This document shows positions 19,091-64,000 of a stretch of 64,000 nucleotides of DNA, one piece after another. Within the stretch, counting starts at the first letter, position 1. Each line of letters begins with the position of its first letter. The DNA lies in NCBI RefSeq assembly GCF_964204645.1, contig NC_134027.1, positions 13,362,485-13,426,484 of the forward strand, in the 5' to 3' direction. A program made the position numbers and the translations under genes. The notes beneath the pieces are model-generated. The model did no database searches, was not told the origin of the DNA, and saw only the letters and a program-made list of their open reading frames with translations. The stretch is from Tubulanus polymorphus (taxonomy: Eukaryota > Animalia > Nemertea).

Positions 19091-19099
19091 TTATTATAC

Positions 19100-26646: not shown

Positions 26647-26721
26647 CCTATTATACCAGAAAAAAAATCAAATGATAAAATCATTGAAAATAAACCAAGA
26701 TTATTAATGGATTAAAATAAA

Positions 26722-27798: not shown

Positions 27799-28322
27799 AT
27801 GAATAAAGATTTATTTATATTTGAGCCACATAATATGTCAGTTACTGGTGTAACCAACTGTGGTAAAACACATTTCATATTAGATTTGTTAGAAACTATT
27901 TTTAGAAATCATTTTGATAATATAATATTATTCTGTCCTACTTATGAAATGAATAAAACATATAATAGAGATATAGTTATGATAAAAAAGTTTATTATCT
28001 CATAAATTGTGCTAATTTACATGATTCAAAAATTAGAGAAAGTGAGTTATGCTATTTAGCTTTCTCTGGAAGACATTTTGGAATAACAACATGGGTTTTA
28101 AATCAAAAATGTAATTCAATTGTGAAAGACTTTAGAGAAAACATTAGAATTTTAGTATTATTCTACAATAAAGATAGAAAATCAATGCAACAATCATTGG
28201 AAGAAAATAAAATTATACCTACTGAATTACATGATGAATGTATGAATAAATCAAAAAGTAATAAAGGTTCCAAATCATTACTGAGACTACAATTTCCTTA
28301 TGAATATAAATTTATAAAATAA
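27799..28322 (+). pseudogene. Packaging ATPase with internal deletion
   Basis: GVTNCGKT Walker A; C-terminal LQFPYEYKFIK as in element 1. Confidence 0.88.
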
Positions 28323-28359
28323 AATCATAATTTGGAATATGTTAGAATTTTGAATTGTG

Positions 28360-28408
28360 TATGAATGGATGAGTGGATGAATTGGATGAATGGATGAATG
28401 GATGAGTG
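28360..28408. repeat. (GAATGGAT)-like short tandem repeat at the convergent gene junction
   Basis: atgaatggatgagtggatgaattggatgaatggatgaatggatgagtg. Confidence 0.8.
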
Positions 28409-28489
28409 TAATCATATATAATTTACATATGTTTTTATTTAAAAAACACTAAGAGTTTGATTTTAAGTTATTTATACTATATTTAAATA

Positions 28490-29406
28490 TTATCTTAATG
28501 AAGTGAATGTTGCTCTTGAAAATATTTTTGGAATATAATTTTCGATTTCAGTTTTAGATGGATGGTTATTTAAAAATTCTCTAAAATCATCATATTTAAG
28601 TTCAACTAAGTTCATTGCATAAGTTACATTTGGTTTAAAGTTATTTAACTTTTTCAATATGGTAACTATATCATTACTCGAGAAATAATCTATAAATGTT
28701 TTTCTATACCACCGATAATCTAATATATTCATTTGATTAAATTTTGGATTTATAATTAATGGATTTTCTATTACATTATCTGTACCTATATGTTTAATTG
28801 AGCATTTATGATTCAATTGTTTATCATATATTACATATTCTTTACATTTTTCACACCAAGATTTAAATACGTATATTGCATGGGCTGAATCATTTCCACC
28901 TTTTGTTTTTAATTTATAATGTTTTGCCCAATAAGCGTTTGATATACATTCATTACAGAAGGCACAATAATTTTGGTCTTCTTTGCATTTATCTTTACAT
29001 ATATTAGTATATATTTTTACTGATTGTAAAATATGTTCATCTTTTTTGACGTGCAATAAATGATCATTATTATTATCAAAATCTTCTTCACAATACACAC
29101 ATCTGATGTTATCTTCTATTTTAGATTCAACATTATCTTCTTTTTTTGTTTCAATATTATCTTCTATTTTTGTTTCAATATTCTTATTATTAGATGTAGA
29201 AGGTATATTATCTATATTATCATTATTATTATCTTTTTTATTTATATCATTATTACGTTCAATTAAATATTCTTTGTATTGATTTAATTCATTAAATAAA
29301 AATGTTCCAATATATTCATTTATTCTTTATAAGGTATTACATAATACAAATCATCATTGATTTCTTTATCAGCTTTGATTCTTTCATATAACTTACCTTC
29401 ATCCAT
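28490..29406 (-). pseudogene. Element-specific Cys/His-rich (zinc-finger) protein
   Basis: ORF 28490..29098 with CAFCNEC..HYKLKT, CEKCK..HKCSIKH; occupies the same slot as 13570..14358. Confidence 0.6.
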
Positions 29407-29438
29407 TCATTATAGAATTTTTTATTAAAACTGAAATT

Positions 29439-30686
29439 TTAATACATAACACTATTAAATTGAGAATTTACGAAATTTAATTGCGCGTCAGATATGATAT
29501 AAATGTACATTTTGAAATTTTTGATTCCTATTTTCTTTTTCATGAATAATTGTATTCCATCTGTAGTGTTCTGTAGTTCTTTCCCAGAACCATGTAATGA
29601 ATTATCCTCAGTTGTTCTAAAATCTAACAATAATGTGTATTTATTACCGGTATAATAATCAATTTGATTAATATTACAATTTTCAGATGATTTCATTTTT
29701 TCATTCATAAAATGTTTTCTAATTTCTGGCCATTGATCAATCACTCTCATTCCTTGACAGAATATTTTATTTGCTATACCTTCGATGGTTATTTCTACTT
29801 TTGTTATTTCAGGATTATAATACTTATCAACCTGTATTGCACCATTAGAATATGTTCCATTTGTAAAAAAATATTAATATACCTTTAATAGATCTTCTAG
29901 GGAAGTTAATATTCTCATTAATTATTTCATCATTTGCATTAATAGTTACAGTTTTAAATTTATCAATATAATCATATAATAATGAAAATCCCTGATTGTA
30001 TTGAGTTTGAATTATGCTTGAAATATTTTGATCAGTTACTGTATCATATTCTAAACATATATTCGATAATTTATAACCCATATATTTAACAACGCTTGAT
30101 AATACAATTTCATTAACAGGAGCAAATGTTATTTCAAATATAATATCTTCTTGAATTGCATATTTATACAAAGGTGCATTATTATTTATCAATTCAAAAT
30201 CTAATGGAATTTTGTATTTGCTTCCATAAATCTTTTTTATCAAATTATCTGTAGCATTAGTTATTATTGCATTATTAGCTTCTGATCTTAATTTATTATG
30301 GTTTTCTGATTGGATGCTTGAAATATCATATTATTTCTATTTTCTTTTGTTAACCATAAATCTTAATAATGCATAAATAAATTATAATCATCTAATGAAT
30401 AAACTGTTTCTGGTCCAATCTTTATAGTAAATTTTTTAATCAAATATCTTCCAACATTATCAACAACATAATTGTTATCATGGCCAGTTACTTTTATATC
30501 AGCTGATAAATAAATACTATTTGGAACATAAAAAGTATGTTGTGTTAATCGAGGAATTCTAACATATAAAGTTTCATCGGGATTAATATTAGAAGGATTA
30601 CGAGTTATTATATGATGAGATCTTTCTGCTTTAATAGCATTAGATATTCTAGAACTCTTAGAAGGATTTATGTAACTCCCACTCAT
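29439..30686 (-). pseudogene. Putative major capsid protein, disrupted
   Basis: Three ORF pieces nearly identical to 12280-13537. Confidence 0.75.
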
Positions 30687-30710
30687 TTATTTAACAAAAA
30701 AATTAATTAT

Positions 30711-32447
30711 TTATTTTTTATTATATTCACTAACCCAAAAATCATTGCACTTACAACTGTAATTGAAAAAAAAAATAATATGTTCAGCAGCAAAGTTGAT
30801 AATATTCCCAGCAGATTTTAATATAAAACCAACAATCGATGCAATAATTCCGGGTAAAGCCGCAGCAGATTTTTTAGATAGTTCCCATAAATATTTTGCT
30901 AATTTCTTTAAACCATCTTTAACTTTAACTTGTATAGAATTATTATTATTCGGTGGTTTATCAGGTGGTTTAGGATTTGGTGTAGGAGTAGATTTTAATG
31001 AATTTGACATAGCTAAACCTATTGTTGTGACCATAGTTGCAGCTGTTAGAATTGAAAGAATTGTTATACCTTCTAACTTAGATAATAATTTTATTCCATC
31101 TTTCAATGATATTTTAGAAGAATCTGGTTTAATTATTAAATCTTTAAAAATAACTTTTAATTTTTTTAATATGATTAAGATCATATGATTTTGATAATAT
31201 ATCTCTTTCTTTTTCCTGTAATTCTTTGTTATATTTTAAATCATCAATTTCTTTTTCTAAAGCTAATTTTCTGCATTCATATATAACTTCATCAATTACT
31301 TGAAGATATTTATTTAATTCTAATTGTTTTAATTCTTCATTTGCATTAGTTAATTATTTTTCTAACATGGTTATTTTAGAAAATCTCATCTTAATATTAG
31401 CAATTTCACCAGCTGATTCTTGCATACCTTTAATTTCTCTACGTGCTTGTTCAGGAAATATTTTTAATTGTTCTTCATTTAAATCAAGTAATCCTTTTTT
31501 AATAAAGATTGCATTCGATTTGTCCCAGTTTCAGTACCAGGTGTATCTAAAACACTAATCATATCTTCTTCAAATGAATTCATTGTATCCAGTAAGTTAT
31601 CTAAATGTTTTCCTAATTGTAATTGACTTGAATCATTATCAAGTTGTTGAATATCTCTTCTCGATGTTTCTGGTGTTGAAGTTCTTAATTTATCTAATCG
31701 ATCTCCATACTCTTCCATTTCTGGATCAACATAAGTAGGATTTAAATTTGGATTTTTAAATGGTGAATATTTGTTAATATCAATATTCGGATTTGGTCTT
31801 TCTTCATTTATTCTATCGAGTGAATTCCATATAATTCTGAGAAATTCTGAACGACCTTTTGAACATTCAATTGAAGATCTTGCTAGCATTCCAGGTTCAA
31901 ATATATTTTCTTGACCCATTCTAGATAATAGTATTGATACAGTTCTGTTATTTAATTCAACATTATAAAACCATGCATCATTTTTAAATTCTAAATTATT
32001 CATAAAAAATGGGTCATCTTGCAAAAAAATTTGCATTACAACACCTTCTGAATCAACTTTATCTATTACATCTTTTGGTAATAGTTCGTTAACAATTGTA
32101 ACTATTACTCTACTTTTCATTAATTATAATTATTCTTTCAATTCAGGGTTTTCTGTTTTTTCTAATCTATCAATTAAATCTTTTCTAAATATTATGGGTT
32201 TAATTACTCCCCTTTCGTGAGCTGTCATATATTCTTCAAATTTTTTGCGCGTTTCAGTATCATCTTTAAATTCATCATAATCATATAATATAGGCCCACT
32301 AGAATCATCTTAACCTAAATTATTATTATATGCTGCTCCATCATCCTTATCAATATTAGTTTCATTAAATTCAGGTTGTGGTTCATCACTTATACCAGGG
32401 GCGTCACCAAAAGTATCCAATGGAATTTCTTCTCCACCTTCTACCAT
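30711..32447 (-). pseudogene. Acidic / coiled-coil / hydrophobic-tail viral protein with a divergent middle
   Basis: Tail TPTPNPKPPDKPP...SAAALPGIIASIVGFILK; middle ORF 31479..32120 unlike the other copies. Confidence 0.75.
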
Positions 32448-32464
32448 TTACATAATAAAGAAAA

Positions 32465-33764
32465 TTAAGATTTAAATTATAATATTCCTCCAATTACAAT
32501 TCCTATACAAGTAATAGCTAATTTAGTATTTTCATGTGATTTATTATCATTATTAGTTTTACTTATTTCATGTTGAATAATATCAGTTTTTATATTTTCC
32601 GATGTATTGTAATCTTTTATTTTAGAAACATAGTTTTAGTTTCTGTTGATTGAATATTTTTTTAAATTTTTTTCACCTTCCATTAATTTTGGAGCAGTAA
32701 TAATCTTTTTATTTATATCATTTAATCCAAATGAATTATTTATTGTTGCAGTTTTAATTAGATTATTATAACCAATTATATTTCCCATTTTTAAAACTAA
32801 ATCATTAGAAATAAATAATAAATTAGGGCCTATACAATAATTTAATCTAATATGTGATTTATCTAAATAATTTGATATCTAACTATATTTTCTGGAATCG
32901 ATCTATTTTTATCATTATGAATGGAATCTTCAAATAAAAATAAATTGTTTCTGCGCGTGAAATGAAGTATTATCATTTCCAACTATTGATGATCTTGTTT
33001 CAACCTGTAAACGTAACAACTTAAATCAAATAAGTTCTAATTGATTGATTTATTCTCCGTATTCCAGCTTTAGTAAAACCTTCACTATTTTCTAGAATAA
33101 AATAAATCCATCCATTATTGTTTTGTTGTTGTATATTATTATAATATTTTCGTAATTCATTCCAATTTAGTTTTCTAGTATCTGTATTTGTTATTATTTT
33201 ACCAAATTCTTTAATATATAATATTCCTAATCCACCCATTGTACCAATTTTTGCTCTAAAATCATTATTTGAGTTAATATTGAATTCATTGCATATCTTA
33301 TAAAACTTAGAAAAATTGATATTATTATTTAGTTCATTAAAATATTTTGAAGCTGGTAAAGAACAATCTAATTCATCTAATATTAATTTTATTTGAAAAT
33401 ATGTATGAAATCTAAAAAGTGATAATACTACTGGTAAACTTGGTTTATTTAAATGATCATTCCAACTTATACCACACCCTGTTGTTGCACAATAAACTGC
33501 AAAATTTAATTGGTTCTGCCAATATTTCATATTAGATTTTAATAACCATTGTTTTGCCTCATTTAAATTTTCAAAATTAATTACGTAAACATTGAATATA
33601 TTTTCCACCTTAACATTAAAATTATTAGTTTCAGTAACATAAATATCTAAATTAATTAATGAATCTAAAACTTCATTTCTATATGAAATATCTTTATTAA
33701 AATCAATTGCAGGAATATTATATTTAATTGATTTATTATATTGGAAAGCTTTTGGAAACCCCAT
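32465..33764 (-). pseudogene. Conserved ~450-aa viral protein, disrupted
   Basis: MGFPKAFQYNKSIKYNIP...QNQLNFAVYCATTGCGISW. Confidence 0.8.
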
Positions 33765-33780
33765 TTATATAATTAAAAAA

Positions 33781-34899
33781 TTAATAATTTATTGATTCTT
33801 TTAATAATTTATCTTGTTCTTCAACTGTTATATTACCATTTAAACTTATTATATAATCTAATGTATTTTTTAATTTATTAATTTCGTTTATATTAGATTT
33901 TATTTTTTCTTTATTACTTTTTATATTTAATTTTGAACTTATACCGGTTAATACACTTGAACTTAAACCTAACACACCAATTGATATAGCTAAAGGCGTT
34001 AATGGACTGAATATTGCTAGAAATGTTATAACGGAACTAAGTGTAACTGAACCACTAATAATAAAATAATATATAATTTTAGATTTTAAATATTTTTTCT
34101 TTTTTATCTTTAAGTCACTTTAAAATTCTAATATTTGTTTTTCCAAATATGATTTTAATTTAGTTTTATTTATATTATGAGGAATAATATTAATATTATC
34201 AACTTTATCATCCATTTATTTTGAAAAGAAATTACTAATTAGTAAATTTATATGCTACAAATATAACAATAACAGTTCCACCTAAAATCCAAATTATTTC
34301 ATATTTCTTCTGTTCACTACTTGGGATATAATAATCTGATATTGTAGGTTAATGTACATGTAATTTTTCTTTATTTGTTACTGCGTTGTATAAACTCATA
34401 GCTTCATCGACTGATTGTAAATCTCTATGTGAAATCTTCTGATCATATAATTCTTTATTGATGTAATCCATATAGTTTTGTCTTTTTTCTCTATATTCTT
34501 CTGCTGCTTTATTATATTTCTCTAATGCTAAATTATGTCTTTTTTGTTCTGATAATGATCAATTTTTATCAATATGCTTAATATCCACCACCAGTAAATG
34601 CCAAAGCGTTAACAATTGCTGACCCTATAATAGTTATAATTGCAGATGCCATTTATTTAGCAAAAAAATTATGCATTTATATAGGAGGAATATATTTCTG
34701 TTTTTCCTAAATAATCAATAGTTTAATTAGATAAAGTTACAGCTAATGTTAATTTTAAGATATCATTTATATCAAATCTATCAACATTAACACTTCCCAT
34801 TTTAAATACTTTTTTTAATACCATTGAATAACCAACAGTTCCAAATGATAGTAAGGCACCATTATATAATCCAGTTATTATCCACTTATTATCACTCAT
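33781..34899 (-). pseudogene. Three small hydrophobic viral genes (73-, 140- and 141-aa homologs), disrupted
   Basis: Starts at 34899, 34652 and 34215; reverse-complement homologs of 57480-58593. Confidence 0.75.
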
Positions 34900-35255
34900 T
34901 TATTTATCAAAAAATCACCTTCTTCAAAATATTTAGTTATATTATTTATGATTAATTCAACATTCATTTCATTACTACTTTCATTGGTATATATTTCAAT
35001 TATTATTTTTTTAATATCATCGATGATAAAATATTCATCTAATTCATAAAATCTTAATGACACTCTAATTAAATCAATAATCTTTTCTACATTAAAAGTT
35101 TCTTTATTTATTGTTTTTTTATACTCAAATGTTGTTTCATTAAAAAATGCAATATTCTTAATATGTGTAATTATATCATTAATGTTAAATTTCATTTCTT
35201 TCTCACGTTTAAAATCAAATCCAAAACATATACTCGGTCCTACTGTAATATTCAG
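34896..35255 (-). pseudogene. Homolog of the 113-aa viral protein
   Basis: VGPSICFGFDFKREKEMKFNIND... Confidence 0.65.
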
Positions 35256-35271
35256 TTATATAATGAAAGAA

Positions 35272-36026
35272 TTACTCTCTACATCATATAATTAATTCTT
35301 AAATTGCAGGAAAGTCATTCAAATCAATTAAATAACCATTATGATTTCTTATTTCTAATTTGAAATTATTGAAATGTGGAATGCATGGTTTAAATACGCA
35401 TTCTGTTAAATTATAATTAATTTGCGTTCCAAATTGTTTAACATTTTTTAATGGCAGAATATTTAATATACTAGAATTACAAATTACGTCTTTAGTTGCT
35501 TCGAATATTTTTGTTGGATCAATTAAATTGCAATAAATATGAAAATGCGTAAAAGGTATTATATTTGAGCTACCTCCTGCGTTTCCAGTAACAACATGCG
35601 GTTTAATTCCTAACATTTTAGCTACTGGTTTGTTAACCATACATTTAGGTTGATCATTAGCTATCTTTATTCTTATTTTATTAGAACTATCAATTTTATT
35701 AAATTTAATTTCAAATACAGAAGTACCACCGATTTTCAACCGAGCTCTTCTATTAATTTCCTGCGCTAATGATTCTAAATTATATAATCCTGGTTTTAAA
35801 AATAGATGATACCATTTATTTTTATTTCTCAAATAAACCATAAACCCTCTATGTTCGAAAGTTTTATCCGATATATTATAAAAGAATTACATAAACTTAC
35901 ATTTACTAATTTTAAATCAACACAATTCTTAAATTCTCTATCTAATTGTTCTAGTAAATTATGCGATTTAGAATTTAACAGTTTTCTTGAATCAACAAAT
36001 ATTCTATATTCTTTTAATTCTGCCAT
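35272..36026 (-). pseudogene. Putative minor capsid (penton) protein, frameshifted
   Basis: MAELKEYRIFVDSRK...KLEIRNHNGYLIDLNDFP. Confidence 0.75.
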
Positions 36027-36049
36027 TTATTTTACATATTTTTATATTA

Positions 36050-36413
36050 TTCAAAATCTATATCATGGTGCCCTTTTTCATTCTTACCCTTATATGTGAA
36101 ATAGAAATCACCTGAACATAATTATTCTAGATCTTCACTTGATATTCTATGAAATCTATCTGGTAAATATGTTCTGAATTTATATGTATTTCCTTTTAAT
36201 CCTTCATATTCTAAGTGGATAACTAATTTATCTCCATATTTGTTAGTAACTGTATCAATATTTGTAATTATATATTTCTTATGAATTGTTAATTCATTTA
36301 ACTTCTTGAATTTATAATCTACAGATTATAAATTAATCTACAGCATTTGTGATATCTTTGATTCTATCTAGAAATGATTTGTTGTTCTCACTGTGTACTT
36401 GTTAACTCTCCAT
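36050..36413 (-). pseudogene. TIR-embedded small protein, right copy of element 2
   Basis: Inverted homolog of 25254-25595. Confidence 0.7.
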
Positions 36414-36577
36414 TTTAATAACATATTTTAAATCAAAACTGAACATAACACTTACCTCTCAACGCGTCCCGCCGCCACGTATGAGTCCCACCACGTTTGC
36501 GTCCCGCCTATTTATACTACTATATATATACAGTGGGGAAAACCCAGTTGCGTGTTGAGACTTGTAAATTATGAGGC

Positions 36578-48056: not shown

Positions 48057-50861
48057 TCATCAGCCGGCCGCAGTGACACCAACGCCGACATCGCTCTCTG
48101 CGACGTTTTGCATGCGTACATGCATCAGAGCTTGCCGCTCTAAGATCAGAGGGTCTTGCAAATGCATTCAGAAAAATCGTTCTGTTTTTGTTTTCATTAT
48201 TCAGTGGGGCCTAACAGTTCATGCGTAAAAATAGGTTTTTGTATCCAAATCTTGATTGATATAAATATCTTGGCTGAGACATGAATAATTGGAAAAGTAG
48301 GCTTTCATACCAGAGGACGCGAGGACGAGACACCACTCATCACCACAAGTAATTTTTTTTCCTAATAAATGGGAGAGAATGGACACCAGACAGAAAACAA
48401 TAATGTTAATAAAAATCAATATTATTGCACATATTGTAAAAAATACATCGATACATCTAATAAAACACGACATGAAAAAACTGCAAATCATATAAAAAAT
48501 GTAATAGATTTTGAAACTCCAGAAAATTCCAATGAAAGAAAAGAAAGATTAGAAAATATGAATGTGGATGAAATAAAATGTGAAGTTTGTAATGAATTTA
48601 TAGTAAAAAGGAATTATAATAGACATCTCGAATCACAAAAACATTATAAAAATTTAAATAAAAATGTTTTAGTAAAAAAACCAAGTTCAAAAACTAAATC
48701 CATTTCAAATAAACCTTACATGGAAAATGTTAGAAATTATATTGATTCATTAGAAATAAAAGATACAATTGAAATTTTAGAAACATTACGCAGTAAAATT
48801 GGTCCTGCAGCTATTATATTTAGATTTTTTAAAGGTACAACAATAGAAGATTATAGTAAATTTAATGAAATAATAGAAAAAATACTAGATTTGATAACAG
48901 ATGTTGAATATCCAAAAATTAGTATCTCTGGGAAAGTAAGTTTTATAAAGTCAGAAGAAAAAATGGATTATAATATTCAAACACTCTCTGAAGAAATAAT
49001 TTCAAAAACACAAATAAAAGAGAAGTTAGAAAAAATATTTAATGAATTTAAACGTCAAAATGACAAAATGATTGAATTAGAAAGTGATTTTGCAAAATTA
49101 TTAAACAAAAATAAAAGAATAGTTATGACAAAAGAAGATGAAATTGATTTTAATTATGCAACTCATTGTTGTTATTGTGAAAAACGTTTTTATTCATTTG
49201 ATAAAAAAGTTAGAGATCATGATCATTTAAATTCAAAATATCGTGGAGCTGCTCATGAAGATTGCAATTTACAAGCTAAGAAAGTTAATTTCGTACCAAT
49301 ATTATTTCATAATTTATCAGGCTATGATACCCATCTATTTATAAAACAATTATCGGGAAAATTGGGTGCAATTAATCAAGAAATAGAAGAATATAATGCT
49401 ATGAATGGTGTAAATGTAAGAAAATATGATTTTAAACTATTAGCTAAAACATCCGAAAATTATATTTCATTTCAATTTGGTTGCATTAGATTTTTAGATT
49501 CTTATAGATTTCTAGCAAGTTCATTAGATTATTTATCAAAAAGTTTAGTTGATAATGATTTTGTTATAACTCGATATTATTATCCAAATGAACAAGATTT
49601 TAAATTATTGAGATATGAAGGCGCAATTCCTTATTCATTTTATAAAACACACAATGATTTTAATGTAACAGAATTATTAAAAGATCAATTTTATGATCAA
49701 TTAAAAGAGGAGTATGTGAAAGACGAAGTGTTTAATAGAACATTAAATATTTGGAGCCATTTTAAGATGAAAAATCATGGTGAATTAGTTGATTTATATT
49801 TAAAATCAGATGTTATGATATTGGCTGACATATTTGAAAAATTTAGAGAAGTTAATTTGAATCATTTTAATGTTGATCCTTGTTATTGCTACTCTAGTCC
49901 TGGTTTAACCTGGCAATGTGGTTTAAAATATACAAATGTAGAATTAGATTTATTAAAAGAACCAGATATGGTTTTATTATTTGAAAAATCAATTAGAGGT
50001 GGAATTAGTGGTGTTATGGGTGATAGATATTTTAAAGCAAATGATGAATATAAATTATTATATATTGATGCCAATAATTTATATGGTTGGGCAATGATGC
50101 AACCCCAACCATACAAAAATTTTATATTAACAGAAGTTGAAAATGATAACAAAACTGATTGGGAAAGCGCAATTGCGAGTTTAAAAGATGAAGCACCAAT
50201 TGGTTATTTCTTTGTAGTTGATTTAGAATATCCTGAAAATATAAAGTTTAAAACAAGAAACTTACCTTATTGCCCAGAACATTTAACCGTAGATGATAGT
50301 TATTTAAGTGAATACCAGAAGAAAATAAAACCGAAAGATCATGATTTTACAGAAAAATTAATACTTACTCAAAATAATAAATACAATTATATTGTTCATT
50401 ATAGAATGTTAAAATTTTATCTAAAGCAAGGAATGAAATTAAAGAAAGTACATAGATATATTGAATTTAATCAATCGAAGTGGTTAGAAAAAATATATAG
50501 ATTTCAATACTCAACAGAGAACCATATCAAAAACAGATTTTGAAAAAGATTTCTTCAAATTAATGAACAATAGTTTTTATGGTAAAACATGCGAAAATAT
50601 TAGAAATAGAAATGATATTGAATTAGTAAATAATTCTGAAAGATTAAGACATTTACAATCAAGTCCTAGACATTTAGGAAAAAAAGATTTGAAGATTATT
50701 TCACAGCAGTTAAATTAAAAAGAACGTCAATGAAATTTAATAAACCTATATTCATTGGTTCAACTGTTTTAGAAGTATCAAAATTATTAATGTATGATTT
50801 TTATTATAATGTTTTTCAACCACTTTTTGGGGAAAAGCATATTGAAATATTATATTTTGAT

Positions 50862-51926
50862 TCTGTAACAGCTGACACCCCAATATTATTAAAATGTAAT
50901 GATAAAATATTAATTAGAAGAATTTCAGAAATAATTCCAAAACAAAATGAATGTTATATTTCATATGGTGAAAAAGAATTAATACAAATAAATGGATTAA
51001 TGGATGTTTGGACAAGAAATGGATGGAAAAAATTAAAGAATATTATTAGACATAAAACAAATAAGAAAATCTATAGAGTTAGAACTAAATTAGGATTTGT
51101 AGATGTTACAGAAGATCATAGTTTAATTAAACGAAATGGCGATGAAATAAAACCAACTGATATAAAAATTGGAGACGAATTATTACATAAAAGATTTTTC
51201 CAAAGAATGAATCATATGACATTCGATGAAATTATTGATAATATTTATAATATAGAACCCGAAACATTAGAAGAAAAAGAATATTTTATCAAAGGATTTT
51301 TTATGGGAGATGGTTCAGCAGGTGTGTATAAATATGTTAATCGCACTCAATATCGTTGGTATTTATGCAATCAAGATTTGAAATTATTAGAAAGAATAAA
51401 GAAATTCTGCGAAGAAGTTTATTCACATAAAACATTTAGAATCATGGATCATATGAAATCATCCGCGGTTTATAGAATATTTGTAAATAATCCTAAAAAT
51501 TTTGCTACAAAATATAATGATGAATTCTATATTCATGCAATAGTGAAAAGTAATACTTCAACAAAAGAAAAGATAGTTCCAGATTATGTATTAAATGCAA
51601 AAATTAATTTAAGAAAATGGTTCTTCATTGGGTTCTATGCTGCAGATGGTTTAAAAAGTTTCAAAAACCGCAAAACGATATCTTTAGCTCAAAAAGGAAA
51701 AGTTGCTATATCAGGATTGAATATATTATGCAATTCATTAGGTTTTAATATGAATATTGGATTGATTAAATCTAAACCAAATTGCTTTTATTTAAGCCAT
51801 GTAGAAAATGAGTTAACAGAAGAAGTTAAAGATTTATTTGAAATATATAACCCAACAGATTATGTTTATGATTTATCAACTGAAGATGGTACATTTAACT
51901 GTGGATTTCCATTAATAGCGGTCAAT
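50862..51926 (+). mobile_element. Intein (355 aa) with LAGLIDADG-type homing endonuclease
   Basis: Block A SVTADTPILL, block B VDVTEDHSL, FIKGFFMGDGS and FFIGFYAADG, block F YVYDLSTEDGTF, terminal AVN followed by +1 Thr; removal restores YFDTDSY as in 19420..19767. Confidence 0.95.
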
Positions 51927-52368
51927 ACTGACAGTTACATACTAAAAATCAAGACAAATGATATAACAAAAGACTTAAAAACATTAAAACATCATTTTGA
52001 TTTTAGCAATTATCCCAAAGATCATGAACTATTTAGCAATGATAATAAAAAGATTCCTGGTAAATTTAAAGATGAATTAGGGGGTGATGAAATGATTGAA
52101 TTTGTTGGGATAAGAAGTAAAATGTATAGTTATAGAACAAAAGATCATGAAGCTAAAAAGTTAAAAGGAATAACAAAACATGTGGTTGATAAACATATAG
52201 AATTTCAAGATTATATAAAGTGCTTATATAACTCAATTGTAATGAAACACAAAATGAATTGTTTAAGATCAGAAGATCACGAGATATACATTAATGAAGT
52301 TGAAAAAACTAGTTTGAATCCATTTGATGATAAAAGGCATATTTTAGATGATGGAATAAAAACATTAC

Positions 52369-52849
52369 TATTCTGCCCGTGCGGCAGATAGCGAACCGGA
52401 AACCGACGAAAACGCAAACAAACAGGCAATTCCGGAGAAGTCTGTATTTATTGATACGCCGTCGATTCGAGACGGTAAAAAACTGAAATAACAGAGATAA
52501 TTTTAATTATTAACTGAAACGACTAAATAAACTAAATCTCAGGACAATGAATAAAGGATAAATGCTTACACTGTACGTGGGCAAGTTCCAAGGTAGATAC
52601 GCGAAGAGATACAGATACGCGGATGTATGGAAGATTTTCCTAGTTACAGCAAGTATTAGCAGACAATAAAAATAGACACGTATACGGAAGTAAACAAACT
52701 CCGGGGAACTAAAAAATACGTATATAGACTCTGGAGCTAAACCGCGGTTACAGACTCACTAAACTGACTGTATAAAAAAGTGTAGATCTCACTACAGACA
52801 AGCACTAAATCTAAATGCATGCATAACGATGTAACCATGTTACAGCACA
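52369..52849. mobile_element. Probable solo LTR (481 bp) with 5-bp TSD
   Basis: ATTAC duplicated at 52364-52368 and 52850-52854; ends tattctg...cagcaca; removal restores KTLPYGY*. Confidence 0.75.
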
Positions 52850-54949: not shown

Positions 54950-56291
54950 TCTCCAAAATCGGAATAATTGTATCCTTAGATACAATAGGATCTTGATTTT
55001 TAATGACTTTGCAAAACCATCTGTCGCAGTATATTTCCTTTTAGAAATATACCTTGTTGACAGCGAGTTCGGTGAATGAAACAGAAACAATTACACAGAA
55101 ACCCATCATGGAAAGTTTCTTTCTGGTGTTTGTTAATTCATCAAATGGAATTATAATATCTAGGTTTAAATAATTTACAATCTTATTTAAAAAGAATTCA
55201 TAATTTATTGAATCTGTTATTCTATTTTCCAAATAATACATTATTATTTGTTTGAATATTTTTTTTATATTTTTCATATCTTCTTCTGTTAATTTAGGTT
55301 TTTCATAATAATCGTTAAATAATAAATATAAATACATTTTCTTTTGTTTTGTGTTAAATGTTGACGGAATAATTGTTTTTATAATATCTTTTTTTGTTAT
55401 TTCACCATTTTTATTTTCTATCATTTTCATTTTTTCAAGCCATTGCATATATTCTGGTGTATGATCTTCTATAGAAAATATTTTAAAAATTTCATCAAGA
55501 TAATTTAATTTTGGATCTATGAGAAAATTTCTAGTTTTTTCTTCACCCAATAAATTCTTTTGCCATCCACATTCATTACAAAATAACACAGTACCTTCTT
55601 GCCCTAAGGTCGTATAACTACATTGTGGACATTTTCGTTTATAATTTATTGGTAATAGATCTTCATTAAGCTCTTGGTATTTTCTTACGTTTTCTTTATG
55701 TTTTATTGTTCTATTATGTAGATTTGAATTACTTGTTGTAATAATCAATTTACAATATTTACAATAATATGTTTTTCTTGTTAATTCATTATATTGTTTT
55801 TCTAACTTTTCAACTGTTTCCTTATTATCTGGTAACGTTTTCTCATATTTTATTTTTTCTAATAAATTATTTTTTCTTTCATTGAATTCAGTTTCAAATT
55901 TATTAGAAATTTTATCTATATGTGCTTTACGAAATTGATGATTCTCCCAATCTTCTATATTTTCAGGGTTATATTTTATTCAACAAGGCTTACAGAAATG
56001 ATCTTTTATATTATCCTTGTCATAGAATAAGAAAGGTCTTTTCCAAATAATTTCAGGTTCAACTTCAACAGAATTACTATTACTTTCATTACTATCAACA
56101 TTAGCCGTTGCACCATTAATTTTACACTTCTCTGAATGTTTTTTAACATAATTTCTTGAGAATAGTTTATTACATTTTGGGCAGTTTAGTTTAGGGGGTT
56201 TATAATTTTCTTCATGTTTTTTCATATGTCGAGCCATATTACTTTTTCTTAGAAGTTCACCACAAATTTCGCATGCTATCTTCTCATCCAT
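54950..56291 (-). pseudogene. Multi-C2H2 zinc-finger protein fused to a VLTF3-like late transcription factor domain
   Basis: 55980..56291 and 55041..55748 are in frame across one TGA; CPQC..FCNECG zinc ribbon; IFKQI...SINYEFFLNKIVNYL resembles the VLTF3 NY.Y.L.K motif; 3' end approximate. Confidence 0.6.
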
Positions 56292-56359
56292 TTATTTAGG
56301 AAAAATTTTATTAAAATTAATTTTTAGTGATGAGCGGTAATTTTTTTATGTTATAAATA

Positions 56360-57121
56360 ATGGTAGAATTAAAAGAATACAGAATATTTGTTGATTCTAG
56401 AAAACTTACAAATTATAAATCACATAATTTACTAGTACAATTAGATAGAGAATTTAAGAATTGTGTAGATTTAAAATTAGTTAATATAAGTTTATGTAAT
56501 TCTTTTTATAATATATCGAATAAAACTATTGAACATAGAGCCTTTTTAATTTTTGATAAAGGTAAAAATGAATGGTCCTATATATATTTAAAACCGGGGT
56601 TATATAATTTAGATACATTAGCACAAGAAATTAATAGAAAAGCCTGGCACAAGTTAGGTAGTAGTTCTGGGTTTAGTATTAGATTTTTAAAAAGTGAGAG
56701 TTCTGATAGAATAAAGATAAGGTTGTCTAATAGTGAAAAACATAAATTTATGGTAAAAAAACCTATAGCTAAACTGTTAGGAATTCTTCCAGATAGATCT
56801 TTTAAAAATATTGACGCTACTACACCAAACTTAATACCTTACACACATTTCTATATTTATTGCAATTTAATCGATCCTACAAAAACATTCGAAGCAACTA
56901 AAGATATAACTTGTAATTCTGGTTTACTAAACATTTTACCATTGAAGAATGTTAAAGAATTTGGAACGCAAATAAATTATAATTTAACAGAATGTGATTT
57001 CAAACCTTGTATTCCACATTTCAATAATTTTAAATTAGAAATAAGAAATCATAATGGTTATTTAATTGATTTGAATAACTTTCCTGTAATTTATGAATTA
57101 GTTATAAGATGTAAAGAGTAA
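56360..57121 (+). CDS. Putative minor capsid (penton) protein
   Basis: IFVDSR...LDREFKNCVDLKLVNISLCNSFYNI and KLEIRNHNGYLIDLN fit single jelly-roll penton patterns of Polinton-like and large DNA viruses. Confidence 0.75.
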   Translation: MVELKEYRIFVDSRKLTNYKSHNLLVQLDREFKNCVDLKLVNISLCNSFYNISNKTIEHRAFLIFDKGKNEWSYIYLKPGLYNLDTLAQEINRKAWHKLGSSSGFSIRFLKSESSDRIKIRLSNSEKHKFMVKKPIAKLLGILPDRSFKNIDATTPNLIPYTHFYIYCNLIDPTKTFEATKDITCNSGLLNILPLKNVKEFGTQINYNLTECDFKPCIPHFNNFKLEIRNHNGYLIDLNNFPVIYELVIRCKE

Positions 57122-57137
57122 TTTTTTCACTGTATAA

Positions 57138-57479
57138 ATGAATAGAACTGTTGGACCGAGTATATGTTTTGGATTTGATTTTAAACGTGAGAAAGAAATA
57201 AGAATTAAACTAAATGATGTAATTACTGATATAAAAAGTAAATCATTTAACAATGCATCAATGATTAATAAAGAAAATTATAATATAGAAAAAGTAATTG
57301 ATTTAATTAAATCACCTTTAAAATATTATGAATTAAATGAAGATGGAATTATTGATGATATTAAAAACATATTAACCGAAATATATGATAATCATAAAAG
57401 TAATAATGAAATAAATGTTGATTTAATCATAAATAAGTTAACTAAATATTTTGATGATAGTAATTTTTTTGATAAATAA
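57138..57479 (+). CDS. Conserved hypothetical viral protein (113 aa)
   Basis: Intact; homologs in elements 1 and 2. Confidence 0.75.
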   Translation: MNRTVGPSICFGFDFKREKEIRIKLNDVITDIKSKSFNNASMINKENYNIEKVIDLIKSPLKYYELNEDGIIDDIKNILTEIYDNHKSNNEINVDLIINKLTKYFDDSNFFDK

Positions 57480-57701
57480 ATGAGTGATAAAAAGTGGATA
57501 ATAACTGGATTATATAATGGAGCATTACTATCAGTTGGAACTGTTGGTTACTCAATGGTATTAAAAAAAGTATTTAAAATGGGAAGTGTTAATGTTGATA
57601 GATTTGATATAAATGATATTTTAAAATTAACATTAGCAGTTACTTTATCTAATTTAACTATTGATTATTTAGAAAAACAAAAATATATTCCTCCCATATA
57701 A
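57480..57701 (+). CDS. Small hydrophobic viral protein (73 aa)
   Basis: Intact, conserved in three copies. Confidence 0.8.
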   Translation: MSDKKWIITGLYNGALLSVGTVGYSMVLKKVFKMGSVNVDRFDINDILKLTLAVTLSNLTIDYLEKQKYIPPI

Positions 57702-57725
57702 ATGCGTAATTATTTTACTAAATAA

Positions 57726-58148
57726 ATGGCTTCTGCAATTATAACTATTATAGGATCGGCAATTGTTAACGCTTTAGCATTTACTGGTGGCGGTTATTTA
57801 TTTAAGCATATTGATAAAAATAGTTCATTAGGAGAACAAAGAAGACATAATTTAGCATTAGAGAAATATAATAAAGCAGCAGAAGAATACAGAGAAAAGA
57901 GACAAAACTATATGGATTACATCAATAAAGAATTATATGATCAGAAGATTTCACATAGAGATTTTCAATCAGTTGATGATGCAATGAGTTTATATAACGC
58001 GGTAACCAATAAAGAAAAATTACATCTATACAAACCTAAATTATCAGATTATGATACCCCAAGTAAAGAACAACAGAAATATGAAATAATATGGATTTTA
58101 GGTGGAACAGTTATTGTTATATTTGTAGCATATAAATTTAATAATTAG
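57726..58148 (+). CDS. Viral protein with hydrophobic termini and coiled-coil (140 aa)
   Basis: Intact; C-terminal TM IIWILGGTVIVIFVAY. Confidence 0.8.
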   Translation: MASAIITIIGSAIVNALAFTGGGYLFKHIDKNSSLGEQRRHNLALEKYNKAAEEYREKRQNYMDYINKELYDQKISHRDFQSVDDAMSLYNAVTNKEKLHLYKPKLSDYDTPSKEQQKYEIIWILGGTVIVIFVAYKFNN

Positions 58149-58167
58149 TAATTTTTTTTCTAAATAA

Positions 58168-58593
58168 ATGGAAGATAATATTGATATTATTCCTCATGAT
58201 ATAAATAAAACTAAATTAAAAATATATTTAGAAAAACAAATATTAGAATTTGAAAGTGACTTAAAAGTTAAAAAGAAAAAATATCTAAAAAGTAAAATTA
58301 TATATTATTTGATTATAAGTGGTTCGGTTACAATTAGTTCTGTAATAACATTTCTAGCAATATTCAGTCCATTAACACCTTTAGCTATATCAATTGGTGT
58401 GTTAGGATTAAGTTCAAGTGCTTTAACTGGTATAAGTTCAAAATTAAATATAAAAAGTAATAAAGAAAAAATTAAAACTAATATAAAAGAAATTAATAAA
58501 TTAAAGAACACACTAGATTATATAATAAGTTTAAATGGCCATATAACAGTTGAAGAACAAGATAAATTATTAAAAGAATTAATAAATTATTAA
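58168..58593 (+). CDS. Two-TM viral protein (141 aa)
   Basis: Intact; hydrophobic hairpin flanked by basic helices. Confidence 0.8.
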   Translation: MEDNIDIIPHDINKTKLKIYLEKQILEFESDLKVKKKKYLKSKIIYYLIISGSVTISSVITFLAIFSPLTPLAISIGVLGLSSSALTGISSKLNIKSNKEKIKTNIKEINKLKNTLDYIISLNGHITVEEQDKLLKELINY

Positions 58594-58609
58594 TTTTTTA
58601 ATTATATAA

Positions 58610-59999
58610 ATGGTAGATAGTTTTCCAAAAGCTTTCCAATATAATAAATCAATTAAATATAATATTCCAGCCATAGATTTTAATAAAGATATTACATATA
58701 GAAATGAAGTTTTAGATTCATTAACTAATTTAGAAATTTATGTTACTGAAACTAATAATTTTAATGCAAAGATGGAAAATATATTTCATGTATATTTAAT
58801 TAATTTTAAAAAATTGAAAGATGAAAAACAATGGTTATTAAAATCTAATATGAAGTATTGGCAGAACCAATTAAATTTTGCTGTTTATTGTGCAACAACA
58901 GGTTGTGGAATTAGTTGGAATGATCATTTGAATAATTCTAAATATAAATTAATTCAAAGTTTATTTAGATTTCATACATACTTTCAAATCAGAATAATAT
59001 TAAATGAATTAGAGTGCGCTTTACCAGGATCTAGATATTTTAAAAAATTAGATAATAATATTAATTTATCAAAGTTTTATAAAATTTGTAATGAATTTAA
59101 TATAGATATAAATAATTCTGATATTAGAACAAAAATTGGAACAATAAGATCACTTCCTTGCCCTAAACAGATTGCAGAATATTGTGCACTTCCCATACCA
59201 TCTAATAGTTTTTATAATATCTATAATAATAAATTAGGTTATGGTAAAATAGAAACAAAGGATTTAGAAACATTAAATTTCAATAAATTACCGAAATTTT
59301 ATGATCATTTAAAACAAGAAAACAATAATGGTTGGGTTTATTTCATTTTAGAAAATAATGAAGGTTTTACAAAATCAGGTATACAAAGAATAAATCAATC
59401 TATTAGAACTTATTTGATATGTATTCTAGGTGCACAAGTTGAAACAAGATCACCGATAATTGGAAATTTGAATACATCATTCGATACACAAAAACAATTT
59501 AAAGTATTATTTGAAGATTCAATTCATAATGATAAAAATAGATCGATTCCAGAAAACATTGTAAGATATCAAAATTATTTAGATAAATCACATATTAGAT
59601 TAAATTATTGTATAGGCCCTAATCTATTAATTATTTCTAATGATTTAGTATTAAAGATGGGAAATATAATTGGTTATAATAATCTAATTAAAACTGCAAC
59701 AATAAATAATTCATTTGGATTGAATGATATAAATAAAAAGATAATTACTGCTCCAAAATTAATGGAAGTTGAATAAAATAAAAAACATATTCAATCAATA
59801 GAAACTAAAACTAAGAATATTAAATTGGATAATGATTCCAAAATAAAAGATTACAATACTATAGAAAATATTAAAACTGATAATATTCAACATGATATAA
59901 TTAAAACTGATAATGATAATAAATTACATGAAAATACTAAATTAGCTTTAACTTGTATAGGAATTGTTATAGGAGGAATATTATATTTTAAATTTTAAT
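58610..59999 (+). pseudogene. Conserved viral protein, 388-aa ORF with premature stop before the TM tail
   Basis: Tail ...ALTCIGIVIGGILYFKF continues past the stop at 59776, as in 9878..10840. Confidence 0.8.
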
Positions 60000-60014
60000 T
60001 TTTTTATTATATAA

Positions 60015-61466
60015 ATGGATGTAGAAGGTGGAGAAGATATTGGAATGGATAATTTTGATGAACCTGGTATAACTCATGAACAACCACCTGATTTTGATGA
60101 AACAAGTTTCAGTAACGAAAATGAAACAGCATATAATTCTAATTTAGCAAGACCTGATACTAATGAATATGTTAATAAAGCACGTTCAAGATTGGACATT
60201 GAAAATGAAAATCCAGATTTAATGAAAAAAGAACTAGAATATGACGAATTAACTGATAAATTCAAACCAATATTAGAAAAATCTGGATTCAATATAACAA
60301 ATAAAGGTGTGAATTATTTAGTAAAAGATTTGAAATATTTAAATGGTGATTATTATTGGCATTTGAAAGATGACTATTATTTTAAGATATCTTCTAATAA
60401 AAGTCTCGATAAAATAATAACAAAACCAACTTTAATTAAATTAGAACAATCTAGAATTAAGAAAATCAACAATGATGTTATAACTGATGTTACAGAACAA
60501 GAGATTAATCAAAATAGAAGAGAATTTAATCGAAGAAATAATGATTTTTTGAAGATAATTAGTGAAAATTTAGAACCAGAAACAATTCCTAAAGAAGATA
60601 TAACTTCCAAAACTAGTAAACTTAAATCAAATAAAGTTCAAACTGAAAAACTTTTACCGAAGGCATAACTTGATGCTACAAAACAAGAATTAGAAGATTT
60701 AGATATATTTTCTGGTAAAGCAATAAGAGAAATTGAAAGTATAAGACATGCATCTGATAAAATTGCGCATGAAAAAGAAATAAGAGATATTAAAATCAGA
60801 TTTTTAGAAAAAGAATTAACTGATAAAAATAAAGAAATAGAACAATTAAAGTCTGATTTAGATCATCAAGTAATTGATGAAATAGAATATAGGCAAAAAG
60901 AATTACGTTTAGAAAAAGAAAAAGATGATTTAGAATATAACATAGAATTACAAAAAGAAGAAATTAAATTATTATTAAAATCATATGATTATAATATAAA
61001 TAGATTAAAAGATGTTTTTAAAAGATATCTAATAAAACCAAATTCTAAAATATCATTGAAAGATAGAATGAAATTATTATTTAAGTTTAAAGGAATCACA
61101 ATTCTTTCAATTCTAACAACTGTAACTATGTTATTTACAACAATAGGTTTAACAATATCAAATGCTTTGAAATCTACTCCTACTCCCAATAAACCAGATA
61201 AACCCCCGAATGATAATAATTCTATACAAGATAAAGATAAAGATGGTTTAAAGAAATTAGCAAAATATTTATGGGAACTATCTAAAAAATCTGCTGCAGC
61301 TTTACCAGGAATTATTGCATCAATTGTTGGTTTTATACTGGGAATATTCTTAACTTTGCTGCTGAACATATTATTTTATTTTTAATTACAATTGTAAGTG
61401 CTATTATTTTTGGGTTAGTGAATATGATATCAAAAAGATATCAAGAAAAAAATAATAAAAAATAAA
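60015..61466 (+). pseudogene. Acidic / coiled-coil / hydrophobic-tail viral protein, disrupted
   Basis: ORFs 60015..60668 and 61056..61385. Confidence 0.75.
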
Positions 61467-61489
61467 TAATTAATTTTTTTGTTAAATAA

Positions 61490-62735
61490 ATGAGTGGGAG
61501 TTATATAAGTCGTTCTAAGATTTCTAGAATATCTAATGCTATTAAAGCAGAAAGATCACATCATATAATTACTCATAATCCTTCAAATATTAATCCCGAT
61601 GAAACTTTATATGTTAGAATTCCTAGATTAACACAAAATACTTTTTATGTTCCCAATAGTATTTATTTATCAGCTGATATAAAAGTAATTGGTCATGATA
61701 ATAATTATGTTGTTGATAATGTTGGGAGATATTTGATTAAAAAATTAACTATAAAGATTGGTCCAGAAACAGTTTTCTCATTAGATGATTATAATTTATT
61801 TATGCATTATAAAGATTTATGGTTAACTAAAGAAAATAGAAATAATATGATATTTCAAGGAATCCAATCAGAAAACCATAATAAATTAAGATCCGGAGCT
61901 AATGACGCAATAGTAACTCGTGCCACAGATAATTTGATTAAAAAGATTTATGGAAGCAAATATAAAATTCCATTAGACTTTGAATTGATAAATAATAATG
62001 CACTTTTATATAAATACGCAATTCAAGAAGATATTATATTTGAGATAAAATTTGCTCCTGTAAATGAAATTGTATTATCTAGCGTTGTTAAAGATATGGG
62101 TTATAAATTATCGAATATATGTTTAGAATATGACACAGTAACTAATGAAAATATTGCTAGCACAATTCAAACTCAATACAATCAAGGATTTTCATTATTA
62201 TATGATTATATTGATAAATTTAAAACTGTAACTATTAATGCAAATGATAAAATAATTAATGAGAATATTAACTTCCCAAGAAGATCTATTAAAGGTATAT
62301 TAATATTTTTTACCATTGCAACACAACATATACTAATGGCGCAATAAAGGTAGATAATTAATATAATCCTGAAATAACAAAAGTAGAAATAACTATCGAA
62401 GGAATAGCAAATAAAATATTATGTCAAGGAATGAGAATGACTGATCAATGGCCAGAAATTAGAAAACATTTTATGAATGAAAAAGTAAAATCATTTGAAA
62501 ATTGTAATATTAATCAAATTGATTATTATACCGGCAATAAATATGCATTATGGTTAGAACAACAGAGGATAATTCATTACATGGTTCTGGAAAAAAACTA
62601 CAGAACACTAAAGATGGAATACAATTATTCATGAAAAAGATAAGAGGAGACAAAAATTTTAAAATGCACATTTATATTATATCTGATGCCCAATTAAATA
62701 TTGTAAATTCACAATTAGATAGTATTCAATATTAG
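61490..62735 (+). pseudogene. Putative major capsid protein, frameshifted
   Basis: Near identical to 12280-13537. Confidence 0.75.
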
Positions 62736-62765
62736 AAATATAAAGTTAAAATTAACGATGTATAA

Positions 62766-63851
62766 ATGGGAGGTAAAAAAACTACTAATACTAAAGAACA
62801 ATATTTAAGAAATTTATATTACAACCCTGAGAGTTCGGTTGCTTATTCTTCTACCAAAAATATATGGCGCCAAGTAAAACAAGATAAATTAGATAAGATA
62901 ATCCCACATTTAGTTAAATATAAAGATATAAATGAATTTATGTTAGAACAACCAACATATACAACACATAAAAAAATTGTTAGAAAATATAAAACTCGTA
63001 AAACTATGGTAAGTTATGTATATCAACAGTGGCAAGGAGATTTAATTGATATGAAAAATGTTAAGAAAGATAATGATGATTATTGGTGGTTATTGAATAT
63101 AATTGATATTTTTAGTCGTTATGTATGGAGTTTCCCACTTTATAGAAAAGATGCTGTACAAACATCAAATGTTTTAAGAAAATTTCTTTCGGATGATAAA
63201 CTAAAACCAGAAAAAATACAATTTGATGATGGAAAAGAGTTTGATAATTCACTTGTTCATGAACTCTTAGATAATCATAATATTAAATATTTTTCAACAA
63301 AATCGGATAAAAAAGCAGCAGTTGTTGAACGATTTAATAGAACATTAAGAACAAGAATGTGGAAATATTTTACAGCAAATAATACTTTTAAATGGATTGA
63401 TGTTTTACCAAAATTGATAGAAGGATATAATAATTCTTATCATTCTTCTATTGGAATGAAACCTATTGATGCTAGAAAACCTGAAAATGCTGAAATTGTT
63501 TGGAATAATTTATATGGAGCATTTCTTGTAGATGATTTTGGTGAACCTAAATTTAAAGTTGGTCTAAATGTTAGAATTTCTAAGTATAAAAAGATATTTG
63601 GTAAAGGATACGATCGAAATTTTACTAGAGAAATATATGAAATAAAAAAGGTAATAACAACAAAACCATATGTCTACTTTTATGAAGAAGAATTAAGTTT
63701 AACTACAGAAAATCTAGAACAAGAATATAAAATTGAAAAAGTATTAAAAACAAAAACTATTAAAAGAAAAAAATATTCTTTAGTAAAATGGGTTGGATGG
63801 CCAGATAAATTCAATGAATGGATATTGTCAAGTAAAATTAAAAATATATAA
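62766..63851 (+). CDS. RVE integrase with C-terminal chromodomain
   Basis: WQGDLIDM, IDIFSRY, QFDDGKEF, VERFNRTLR; YKIEKVLK...LVKWVGWPDKFNEWI; small in-frame deletion near 63675. Confidence 0.95.
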   Translation: MGGKKTTNTKEQYLRNLYYNPESSVAYSSTKNIWRQVKQDKLDKIIPHLVKYKDINEFMLEQPTYTTHKKIVRKYKTRKTMVSYVYQQWQGDLIDMKNVKKDNDDYWWLLNIIDIFSRYVWSFPLYRKDAVQTSNVLRKFLSDDKLKPEKIQFDDGKEFDNSLVHELLDNHNIKYFSTKSDKKAAVVERFNRTLRTRMWKYFTANNTFKWIDVLPKLIEGYNNSYHSSIGMKPIDARKPENAEIVWNNLYGAFLVDDFGEPKFKVGLNVRISKYKKIFGKGYDRNFTREIYEIKKVITTKPYVYFYEEELSLTTENLEQEYKIEKVLKTKTIKRKKYSLVKWVGWPDKFNEWILSSKIKNI

Positions 63852-63852
63852 A

Positions 63853-64000
63853 TGAATGAGGAATTATTTATATTTGAACCTCATAATATGTTAATTTCTG
63901 GTGTAACAAATTGTGGAAAAACTTATTTTATATTAAATTTGTTAGAAACTGTTTATAAAAACTATTTTGATAATATAGTATTATTTTGTCCAACATATGA
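63853..64000 (+). CDS. Packaging ATPase, 5' part (truncated by the window)
   Basis: MNEELFIFEPHNMLISGVTNCGKT. Confidence 0.88.

Follow-up and report, generated by a model that had tools for sequence, protein, structure and literature searches.

TAAATG at the start codons of a clade of animal-integrated Polinton-like elements: a probable late-type promoter signature of virophage-like life

Our analysis of a 64,000-nucleotide window of the nemertean Tubulanus polymorphus (contig NC_134027.1, positions 13,362,485 to 13,426,484; coordinates below count from the first base of this whole stretch) revealed three decayed Polinton-like copies, named E1, E2 and E3, inside host DNA, the host having a guanine-plus-cytosine (GC) content of about 36% and the elements 20-26%. 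At nearly all start codons of these copies and of a clade of metagenomic relatives there is a two-part motif, TAAATG overlapping the ATG and an A/T run at a fixed distance upstream, which is independent of base composition and of coupling to a preceding stop codon. This motif probably serves as a promoter of the late type, for which a co-infecting virus of the Nucleocytoviricota supplies the RNA polymerase, so that the elements would lead a virophage-like life; that the helper comes from the pox lineage is a serious possibility which we would not yet call probable. The copies in the window are decayed fossils that retain the signal.

The original prediction had set TAAATG on the start codons of 32 genes in the window, and all 32 do carry it (the last at 63852 instead of 63853). 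In a table of genes chosen by homology, where the orthologous genes of E1, E2 and E3 are set side by side, the motif stands at 32 of 41 starts; in one of the nine misses the ATG itself is gone, and five others retain TAAA(T/A) immediately before the ATG (56360, 7999, the integrase of E2, the PolB of E1 and an additional copy of gene 25254). Each of the 16 gene groups in the table shows TAAATG in one copy or more; with three further starts that lack it or are decayed (open reading frame (ORF) 32120, a gene of E1 near 17243 and the counterpart of gene 13570 in E2), the tally becomes 16 of at least 18 groups. In E3 alone, the least decayed copy, TAAATG is found at 11 of 12 starts (p ~3e-11 at a null of 9%). 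As the null we took the rate at which the first ATG after a stop is preceded by TAA in dinucleotide shuffles, a rate that already allows for a bias of ORF calling, since any ATG following an in-frame TAA is counted as first in that frame; it amounts to 7.2% for the window elements and 2-9% for shuffled relatives, and the motif lies far above it. TAA precedes 129 of all 1645 ATGs in the elements and 20 of 705 in host DNA. Stop-start coupling fails as a general cause: it accounts for two gene groups out of 16, namely 57480 and that of the ATPase at 63852, and neither is coupled in most relatives.

The relatives reveal how far the motif extends. A capsid profile built from 39 of 63 homologues retrieved 42 metagenome loci, in which the first ATG was scored for each ORF of a non-overlapping set with a minimum length of 100 amino acids. 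TAAATG is present at 55 of 65 starts in the 16 loci with capsid identity of at least 52%, whereas it is present at 2 of 90 in 18 sister loci (capsid identity 29-46%) and at none of 26 in eight weak loci. A tree was built from 23 capsids whose rows aligned over at least 280 residues, with the partial L015 and L027 excluded; in it the window groups with 14 of the high-identity loci in a single clade (support 100/99). Moreover, orthologous genes for the ATPase, the integrase and the minor capsid protein, as well as unassigned genes, bear the motif in the clade and lack it in the sisters. Some clade loci are near-duplicates, so single lineages weigh more: the motif is found at 14/15 starts in L001, 3/4 in L006 (44% GC), 2/3 in L008 (40% GC), 4/4 in L009, 3/4 in L011 and 2/2 in L012. 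Composition is not the explanation, because AT-rich sister loci (26-32% GC) have TAAATG at just 1 of 20 starts and the motif is present at 40-44% GC, and stop-start coupling is seen in 1 of the 55 clade TAAATG starts. Eleven of these 55 are head-to-head starts, with ATG gaps of 19, 28, 28, 30, 64 and 72 bp. When TAAAT is allowed anywhere within 10 bases of the ATG, the contrast persists (clade 59/65 vs sisters 5/90).

The second part of the motif lies upstream, where positions are counted from the T of TAAAT. The original prediction had mentioned a T-run often preceding the motif; the run is real and moreover fixed in position, with A at -15 to -13 and T at -12 to -9 (in the window, T at -9 in 27 of 32 starts and A at -15 in 26 of 32). 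Over the 55 clade starts, A occupies -15 in 78%, T occupies -12 to -10 in 55-73% (-11 62%, -10 73%), and T at -9 reaches 89% (49/55), while it is found in 34% of 95 TAAATG sites that are not starts. Poxvirus late promoters are described in two reviews. In vaccinia the start codon is overlapped by TAAAT and a following G, and the tenth base upstream is a conserved T among other Ts (PMC11980589); PMC5294985 places the T core 5-7 bp from TAAAT(G/A). The combination of an upstream T core and a TAAAT(G) at the start codon is described as a poxvirus late hallmark (PMC11980589, PMC5294985). Our comparison with vaccinia is drawn from these descriptions, not from promoter logos. The base at -3 of the ATG also differs between the groups, being T in 56 of 65 clade genes vs A in 50 of 90 sister genes, and a T there makes for a weak Kozak context. 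In vaccinia and in yeast plasmids the polymerase slips at TAAAT and thereby furnishes the mRNA with a 5' poly(A) leader (PMC6211774); such a leader would turn the -3 T into A.

Scans of IMG/VR with the capsid and with the ATPase recovered no relative, and a scan of GTDB gave a single sister-type fragment, L052, without TAAATG; it sits in an archaeal metagenome-assembled genome, where it is probably mis-binned. We also scanned IMG/VR for head-to-head TAAATG pairs, which gave at least 121 loci. Among the matches listed is one distant small Polinton, L176 (positions 1-9034, 38% GC), with a PolB 33% identical to that of E3, an A32 ATPase and an integrase 45-48% identical to the clade integrases; TAAATG stands at 7 of its 7 starts, one of the seven being selected by the search pattern. 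Its integrase has an extra 140-residue N-terminal domain that looks protease-like by eye and has no Pfam match. Two other PolB relatives have TAAATG at 0/13 and 0/1 starts.

Several sister loci show starts of other kinds. In an AT-rich sister lineage without TAAATG (L020, L026 and L032), all eight distinct starts have a TATA no more than 14 bases from the ATG, against a background of 14-28% (p ~4e-5, a post hoc test). The sister loci L017 and L034 have starts of the TATAAA(A)ATG type, possibly an intermediate state.

How, then, are these genes transcribed? An artefact of stop-start coupling, AT-richness or ORF-calling bias is hardly credible: two of the 16 window groups are indeed coupled, and an in-frame TAA does make its ATG the first of the frame, but shuffles that include this bias give 2-9%, coupling accounts for one of the 55 clade starts, the T at -9 is fixed, and the motif is present at 40-44% GC and absent from AT-rich sisters. 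A polymerase supplied by the element itself, or by a linear cytoplasmic plasmid present alongside it, like pGKL of yeast with its TAAAN initiator, is very unlikely. To our knowledge, plasmids of this type are known from fungi. Yeast virus-like elements do offer a precedent, since according to PMC6211774 they replicate with a protein-primed PolB (pPolB), initiate transcription at TAAAN and have poly(A) leaders; here, however, no RNA polymerase or capping domain was found above cut-off in the ORFs of the window or of the clade, whose longest locus (11.5 kb) is incomplete, and only the PolB ORF is large enough. None of the 38 unexplained ORFs matched a captured poxvirus RNA polymerase subunit above cut-off, no poxvirus transcription genes were found in the elements, which weighs against a pox helper, and no helper-virus genes in the window or the relatives. 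Host RNA polymerase II acting in the nucleus, with the motif as a compact core promoter or short-leader translation signal fixed by the clade, deserves a more conscientious weighing, and we consider it rather unlikely. The elements do integrate into nuclear DNA, a purine at +4 is found in 62 of 65 clade genes as in cap-scanning translation, and 19 of 49 clade genes have an AATAAA close to their stop, though the DNA is very AT-rich. Yet the T at -3 is unfavourable for scanning where the sisters use A, head-to-head ATGs 19-30 bp apart allow almost no leader, there is no AG before the ATG (a reading as a trans-splice acceptor was rejected on the same ground), and the coding DNA of the clade shows no avoidance of AATAAA (154 observed vs 154.6 expected from codon usage; in sisters 41 vs 52.9, namely 30/37.9 plus 11/15.0, not significant). 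The non-avoidance of AATAAA gives weak support to transcription outside the nucleus. The earlier argument that spacers are too short for a typical polymerase II promoter is weak alone, because a promoter can sit inside the preceding gene.

Dependence on a helper virus thus best explains a motif that is above chance, uncoupled, limited to one clade and of two-part architecture. In this respect the original prediction of a virophage-like family transcribed by a co-infecting virus stands; of the two kinds of polymerase that it named, pox-like or NCLDV, the pox-like one does not follow in the same way. The same mechanism with a non-pox helper of the Nucleocytoviricota (irido-, asco-, asfar- or algal-virus-like) is a real if minority prospect, and several observations weigh against the pox lineage or against helper dependence as a whole. 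The exact extended 23-base pattern matched nine IMG/VR contigs, so that it is not pox-specific, and the four annotated ones resemble non-pox giant viruses (TFIIB, A32, ribonucleotide reductase). With the selecting pairs excluded, TAAATG stands at 57 of 523 ORFs (11%) of other viral contigs, and at 15 of 42 unselected starts in a contig set which, from its gene content, we take to be prasinovirus-like. The entomopoxvirus stretch L174, called so by its VLTF3, NAD ligase and MSV199 domains, has TAAATG at 9 of 20 starts (7 of 18 without the selecting pairs), and its T, judged on ten starts only, falls at -9 in 4/10 and at -11 in 9/10. In the elements the conserved T is one base off the vaccinia description if counted from the T. 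The integrase and PolB of E1 and E2 lack the exact TAAATG, just as the original prediction had noted, and the virophage-like element L179, with an integrase 40-44% similar, has the motif at 1 of 9 starts. Since the loci are related, a Fisher p on clade vs sister counts overstates their independence. The early terminator TTTTTNT is depleted in clade genes (16 vs 40.6 expected, a ratio of 0.39), but with TTTTT at 0.53 and A7 at 0.39 this is largely general homopolymer avoidance; the method does detect depletion in the entomopoxvirus genes without TAAATG (5 vs 13.1). Moreover the PolB of E3 has in its motif C a 355-residue intein with a LAGLIDADG domain (50862-51926, + strand), absent from E1, for which the top relatives among the best 120 of 305 matches lie in other pPolBs (62, 49 and 48%) and the next ones in RNA-primed polymerases at the same site (34-41%). 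The two intein-bearing RNA-primed polymerases that were checked are delta-like, and the PDB matches name no poxvirus polymerase; such delta-like enzymes would be those of giant viruses, hinting at co-infection with large viruses and not with a poxvirus specifically. (Krupovic et al., in a passage on endonuclease inserts, mention an intein as their suggested origin.) A non-pox helper is further favoured by the TAAAT upstream of the ranavirus DNA polymerase gene, noted in a passage of PMC5294985. What speaks for a pox lineage instead is that TAAATG starts are a minority in the giant-virus contigs (11% overall, 2/9 in L180), where the T at -9 is present in 42% and not fixed, and that the pairing of a T core with TAAAT(G) at the start codon is the described hallmark of poxvirus late genes.

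If a helper polymerase reads the motif, the steps can be pictured after vaccinia and mavirus. As in vaccinia, helper late factors would bind the T-rich core, and the polymerase would initiate within AAA, slip and add a 5' poly(A) leader, converting the poor T at -3 to A and giving nearly leaderless mRNAs. On the model of mavirus, all genes, PolB and integrase included, would switch on jointly at the late phase of the helper, and integrated copies may lie silent until the helper infects, as with mavirus and Cafeteria roenbergensis virus (CroV). The elements would in this way alternate between integration and a virophage-like, parasitic phase. A bolder extension, which we regard as doubtful, would have the whole animal-integrated clade be obligate virophages of a pox-like invertebrate virus, with related lineages having rewired their starts to other helpers. 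The TATA starts of L020, L026 and L032 could under that extension be an asfarvirus-like late signal; late promoters of African swine fever virus require TATA at the initiation site, according to a section of PMC5294985. Were it true, one could read off the helper of any endogenous Polinton from the sequence around its start codons, and poxviruses so far unseen would come to light.

As to the copies themselves, E1 (decayed, about 7.2-23.5 kb, 7200..23500) has its structural genes on the + strand and the ATPase, integrase and PolB on the - strand, with 11 of the listed TAAATG starts; E2 (decayed, PolB partial, about 25.25-36.4 kb, 25250..36420) has 10; in E3 the PolB lies at 48.37-52.4 kb and all else at 55-64 kb, extending past the window end. 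The structural blocks of the three copies are 82-90% identical in DNA, while the integrase and PolB of E3 are only about 70% identical to their E1 and E2 counterparts. The gene content comprises a protein-primed PolB, an rve integrase with chromodomain, an A32 ATPase and two capsid proteins, a double jelly-roll one and a probable minor one. The broken PolB of E3 (48366..52391, + strand) starts at TAAATG, with TAATTTTTTTT upstream and no gene upstream; PolBs of the window are 35-44% identical to the intact sister pPolBs of L016 and L021, which match DNA_pol_B_2; for the PolB of E3 the identity to intact sister enzymes is 35-43%. The sequences AAAATTTGA and AAAATTGGA before the PolBs of E1 and E2 were considered as an early promoter and rejected, as they lie only about 8 bases from the ATG.

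In the remainder of E3, a zinc-finger gene (ORF 55980-56291, - strand, TAAATG at 56289..56294) stands head-to-head with the gene of the probable minor capsid protein (56360..57121, + strand; weak DUF5901 match, E=0.003), the two being 68 bp apart. The latter starts in E3 with TAAATA-ATG, the initiator being retained and the ATG shifted, and with TAAATG in the E1 and E2 copies. All the following genes are on the + strand. TAAATG at 57135..57140 begins gene 57138 (113 residues, function unassigned), and that at 57477..57482 the hydrophobic gene 57480 (73 residues), where the TAA doubles as the upstream stop, which is not so in the relative L001. Gene 57726 (140 residues, hydrophobic N-terminus; TAAATG at 57723..57728) has sister-clade orthologues without the motif, gene 58168 (141 residues, two hydrophobic segments; 58165..58170) has a weak SLATT match in an orthologue, and gene 58610 (58607..58612) is a conserved core gene of unassigned function, whose orthologue gave a poor structure model (with a confidence score, pLDDT, of 49.5) with nothing matched in a fold search. 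Gene 60015 (60012..60017) is broken, and is about 485 residues long in L001. The double jelly-roll major capsid gene (61490..62735, TAAATG at 61487..61492) is fragmented in E3 and 77% identical to intact relatives of 415 residues. A model of one intact relative, P0002 (pLDDT 87), matches the capsids of Singapore grouper iridovirus (SGIV) and of the chlorovirus PBCV-1 with E 1e-15; giant-virus capsids (iridovirus, chlorovirus) rank first in the fold search, and the capsid profile had zero matches among PDB sequences. Next come the rve integrase with a C-terminal chromodomain (62763..63851 with its TAAATG) and the A32 packaging ATPase (63849..64000 with its stop-coupled TAAATG), which is cut at the window end and has an orthologue matching Pox_A32 with E=5e-11. 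The scanned ORFs of window and clade gave no Pfam or PHROG match for a protease, with the loci being incomplete and the adenain family able to escape Pfam.

Some further observations concern the element genes and the DNA around them. A small conserved gene lies at 23210-23557 (- strand), 25254 (+) and 36040-36415 (-) of the window and at 125-469 of L001; among Atlas clusters with a name, the closest to it is that of a phi29-type single-strand binding protein (0.87), which serves as a lead only. L001 also has a putative deoxynucleoside kinase gene with TAAATG (10340-10981, - strand), whose homologues are only unnamed or generic. Remnants at 1248-1770 (PolB end and zinc-finger gene region) belong to a fourth element copy. 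An 11-bp tandem array at 14395-14710 separates the converging gene blocks of E1, long AAT-based tandem arrays with 12- and 15-bp units fill 23560-24770 between E1 and E2, and repeated CTGTGATTGG units occur at 36573-36732, past the end of E2. At the decayed ends of the window elements no clear terminal inverted repeats were found, and an Rfam search gave zero matches. An exon of a host astacin metalloprotease (5373-5456, + strand, flanked by AG and GT; Pfam Astacin E=1.5e-9) points to an animal host, as judged from the sequence, and a weak GIY-YIG fragment at 40987-41274 (+ strand) may be a Penelope-type remnant.

Animal Polintons could be viruses that live on their own, transposons, or parasites that depend on larger viruses, and no virions have yet been seen for them, as a 2026 preprint states (bioRxiv 10.64898/2026.06.19.733378). 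The promoter signature sets a TAAATG clade apart from its sister clades within one family, so that lifestyle becomes directly testable. If the helper reading is true, the provirophage strategy of the mavirus type extends to animals, possibly as an antiviral defence, and large DNA viruses still unsampled in these hosts are to be expected. Virophages sharing the promoters of their helpers are already known in protists, and an animal Polinton clade with such a signature was not found in the literature searched. The main text of PMC11296320 has zero occurrences of promoter, TAAAT, motif or transcription; the word promoter is absent from the main texts of the coral polintovirus paper, the nematode Polinton preprint, the adintovirus paper (PMC8502044), Buck et al., Krupovic et al., the egovirus preprint and two 2026 classification preprints (one being bioRxiv 10.64898/2026.06.19.733378). 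A literature search for TAAATG with polinton returned nothing relevant by title or abstract start, subscription papers and supplements lying outside its scope, and the passages of PMC6950620 consulted have nothing on invertebrate poxviruses.

Among known systems, mavirus offers the closest parallel in strategy: it integrates, has a pPolB and an rve integrase, and its promoters match the late motif of CroV, by which the provirophage is switched on, as summarised in bioRxiv 10.1101/068312. Mavirus differs in having a protist host, a helper of the Imitervirales, another motif and a virophage-type capsid, whereas the window elements have apparently an animal host and a capsid only 10% identical. 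In the fold search the mavirus and Sputnik capsids rank 46-47 with 10-11% identity, and the window ORFs have no match to the virophage capsid Pfam family, so that the virophage-type pairing of capsid and maturation protease was not found. The late promoters of vaccinia and mpox, as described in the reviews cited above, share the TAAATG overlapping the start codon and the T-rich core about 10 bases upstream, but there the motif marks the late gene class only and here nearly all genes. Polinton-like viruses have also been found in entomopoxvirus occlusion bodies, tied to them by co-purification (from the account in PMC11296320); they are Polinton-like viruses linked to poxviruses in animals, as the window elements may be, with the capsid of one lineage lying outside the Maverick groups, and differ, compared by description only, in that all four encode a cysteine protease, none of which was detected here. 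Gezel-14T (PgVV) is likewise a Polinton-like virus sharing a promoter motif with its giant helper, though by the preprint's outline (bioRxiv 10.1101/2022.07.28.501842) the motif is the early AAAATTGA, five genes carry it and the host is an alga. With Maverick/Polintons and adintoviruses the elements share the pPolB, rve integrase, A32 ATPase, double jelly-roll capsid and integration in animals, as these are set out in parts of PMC8502044 and bioRxiv 10.64898/2026.06.19.733378; they differ from adintoviruses in that no adenain was detected and that the capsid fold is nearer to giant-virus capsids than to adintovirus entries. The latter preprint mentions a few elements from Octocorallia, Hydrozoa and Bivalvia near Aquintoviruses, and these may be the family seen in our window. 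With a protein-primed PolB, an rve integrase, an A32 ATPase and a double jelly-roll capsid, the window elements share the gene set of Polintons/Mavericks in the broad sense.

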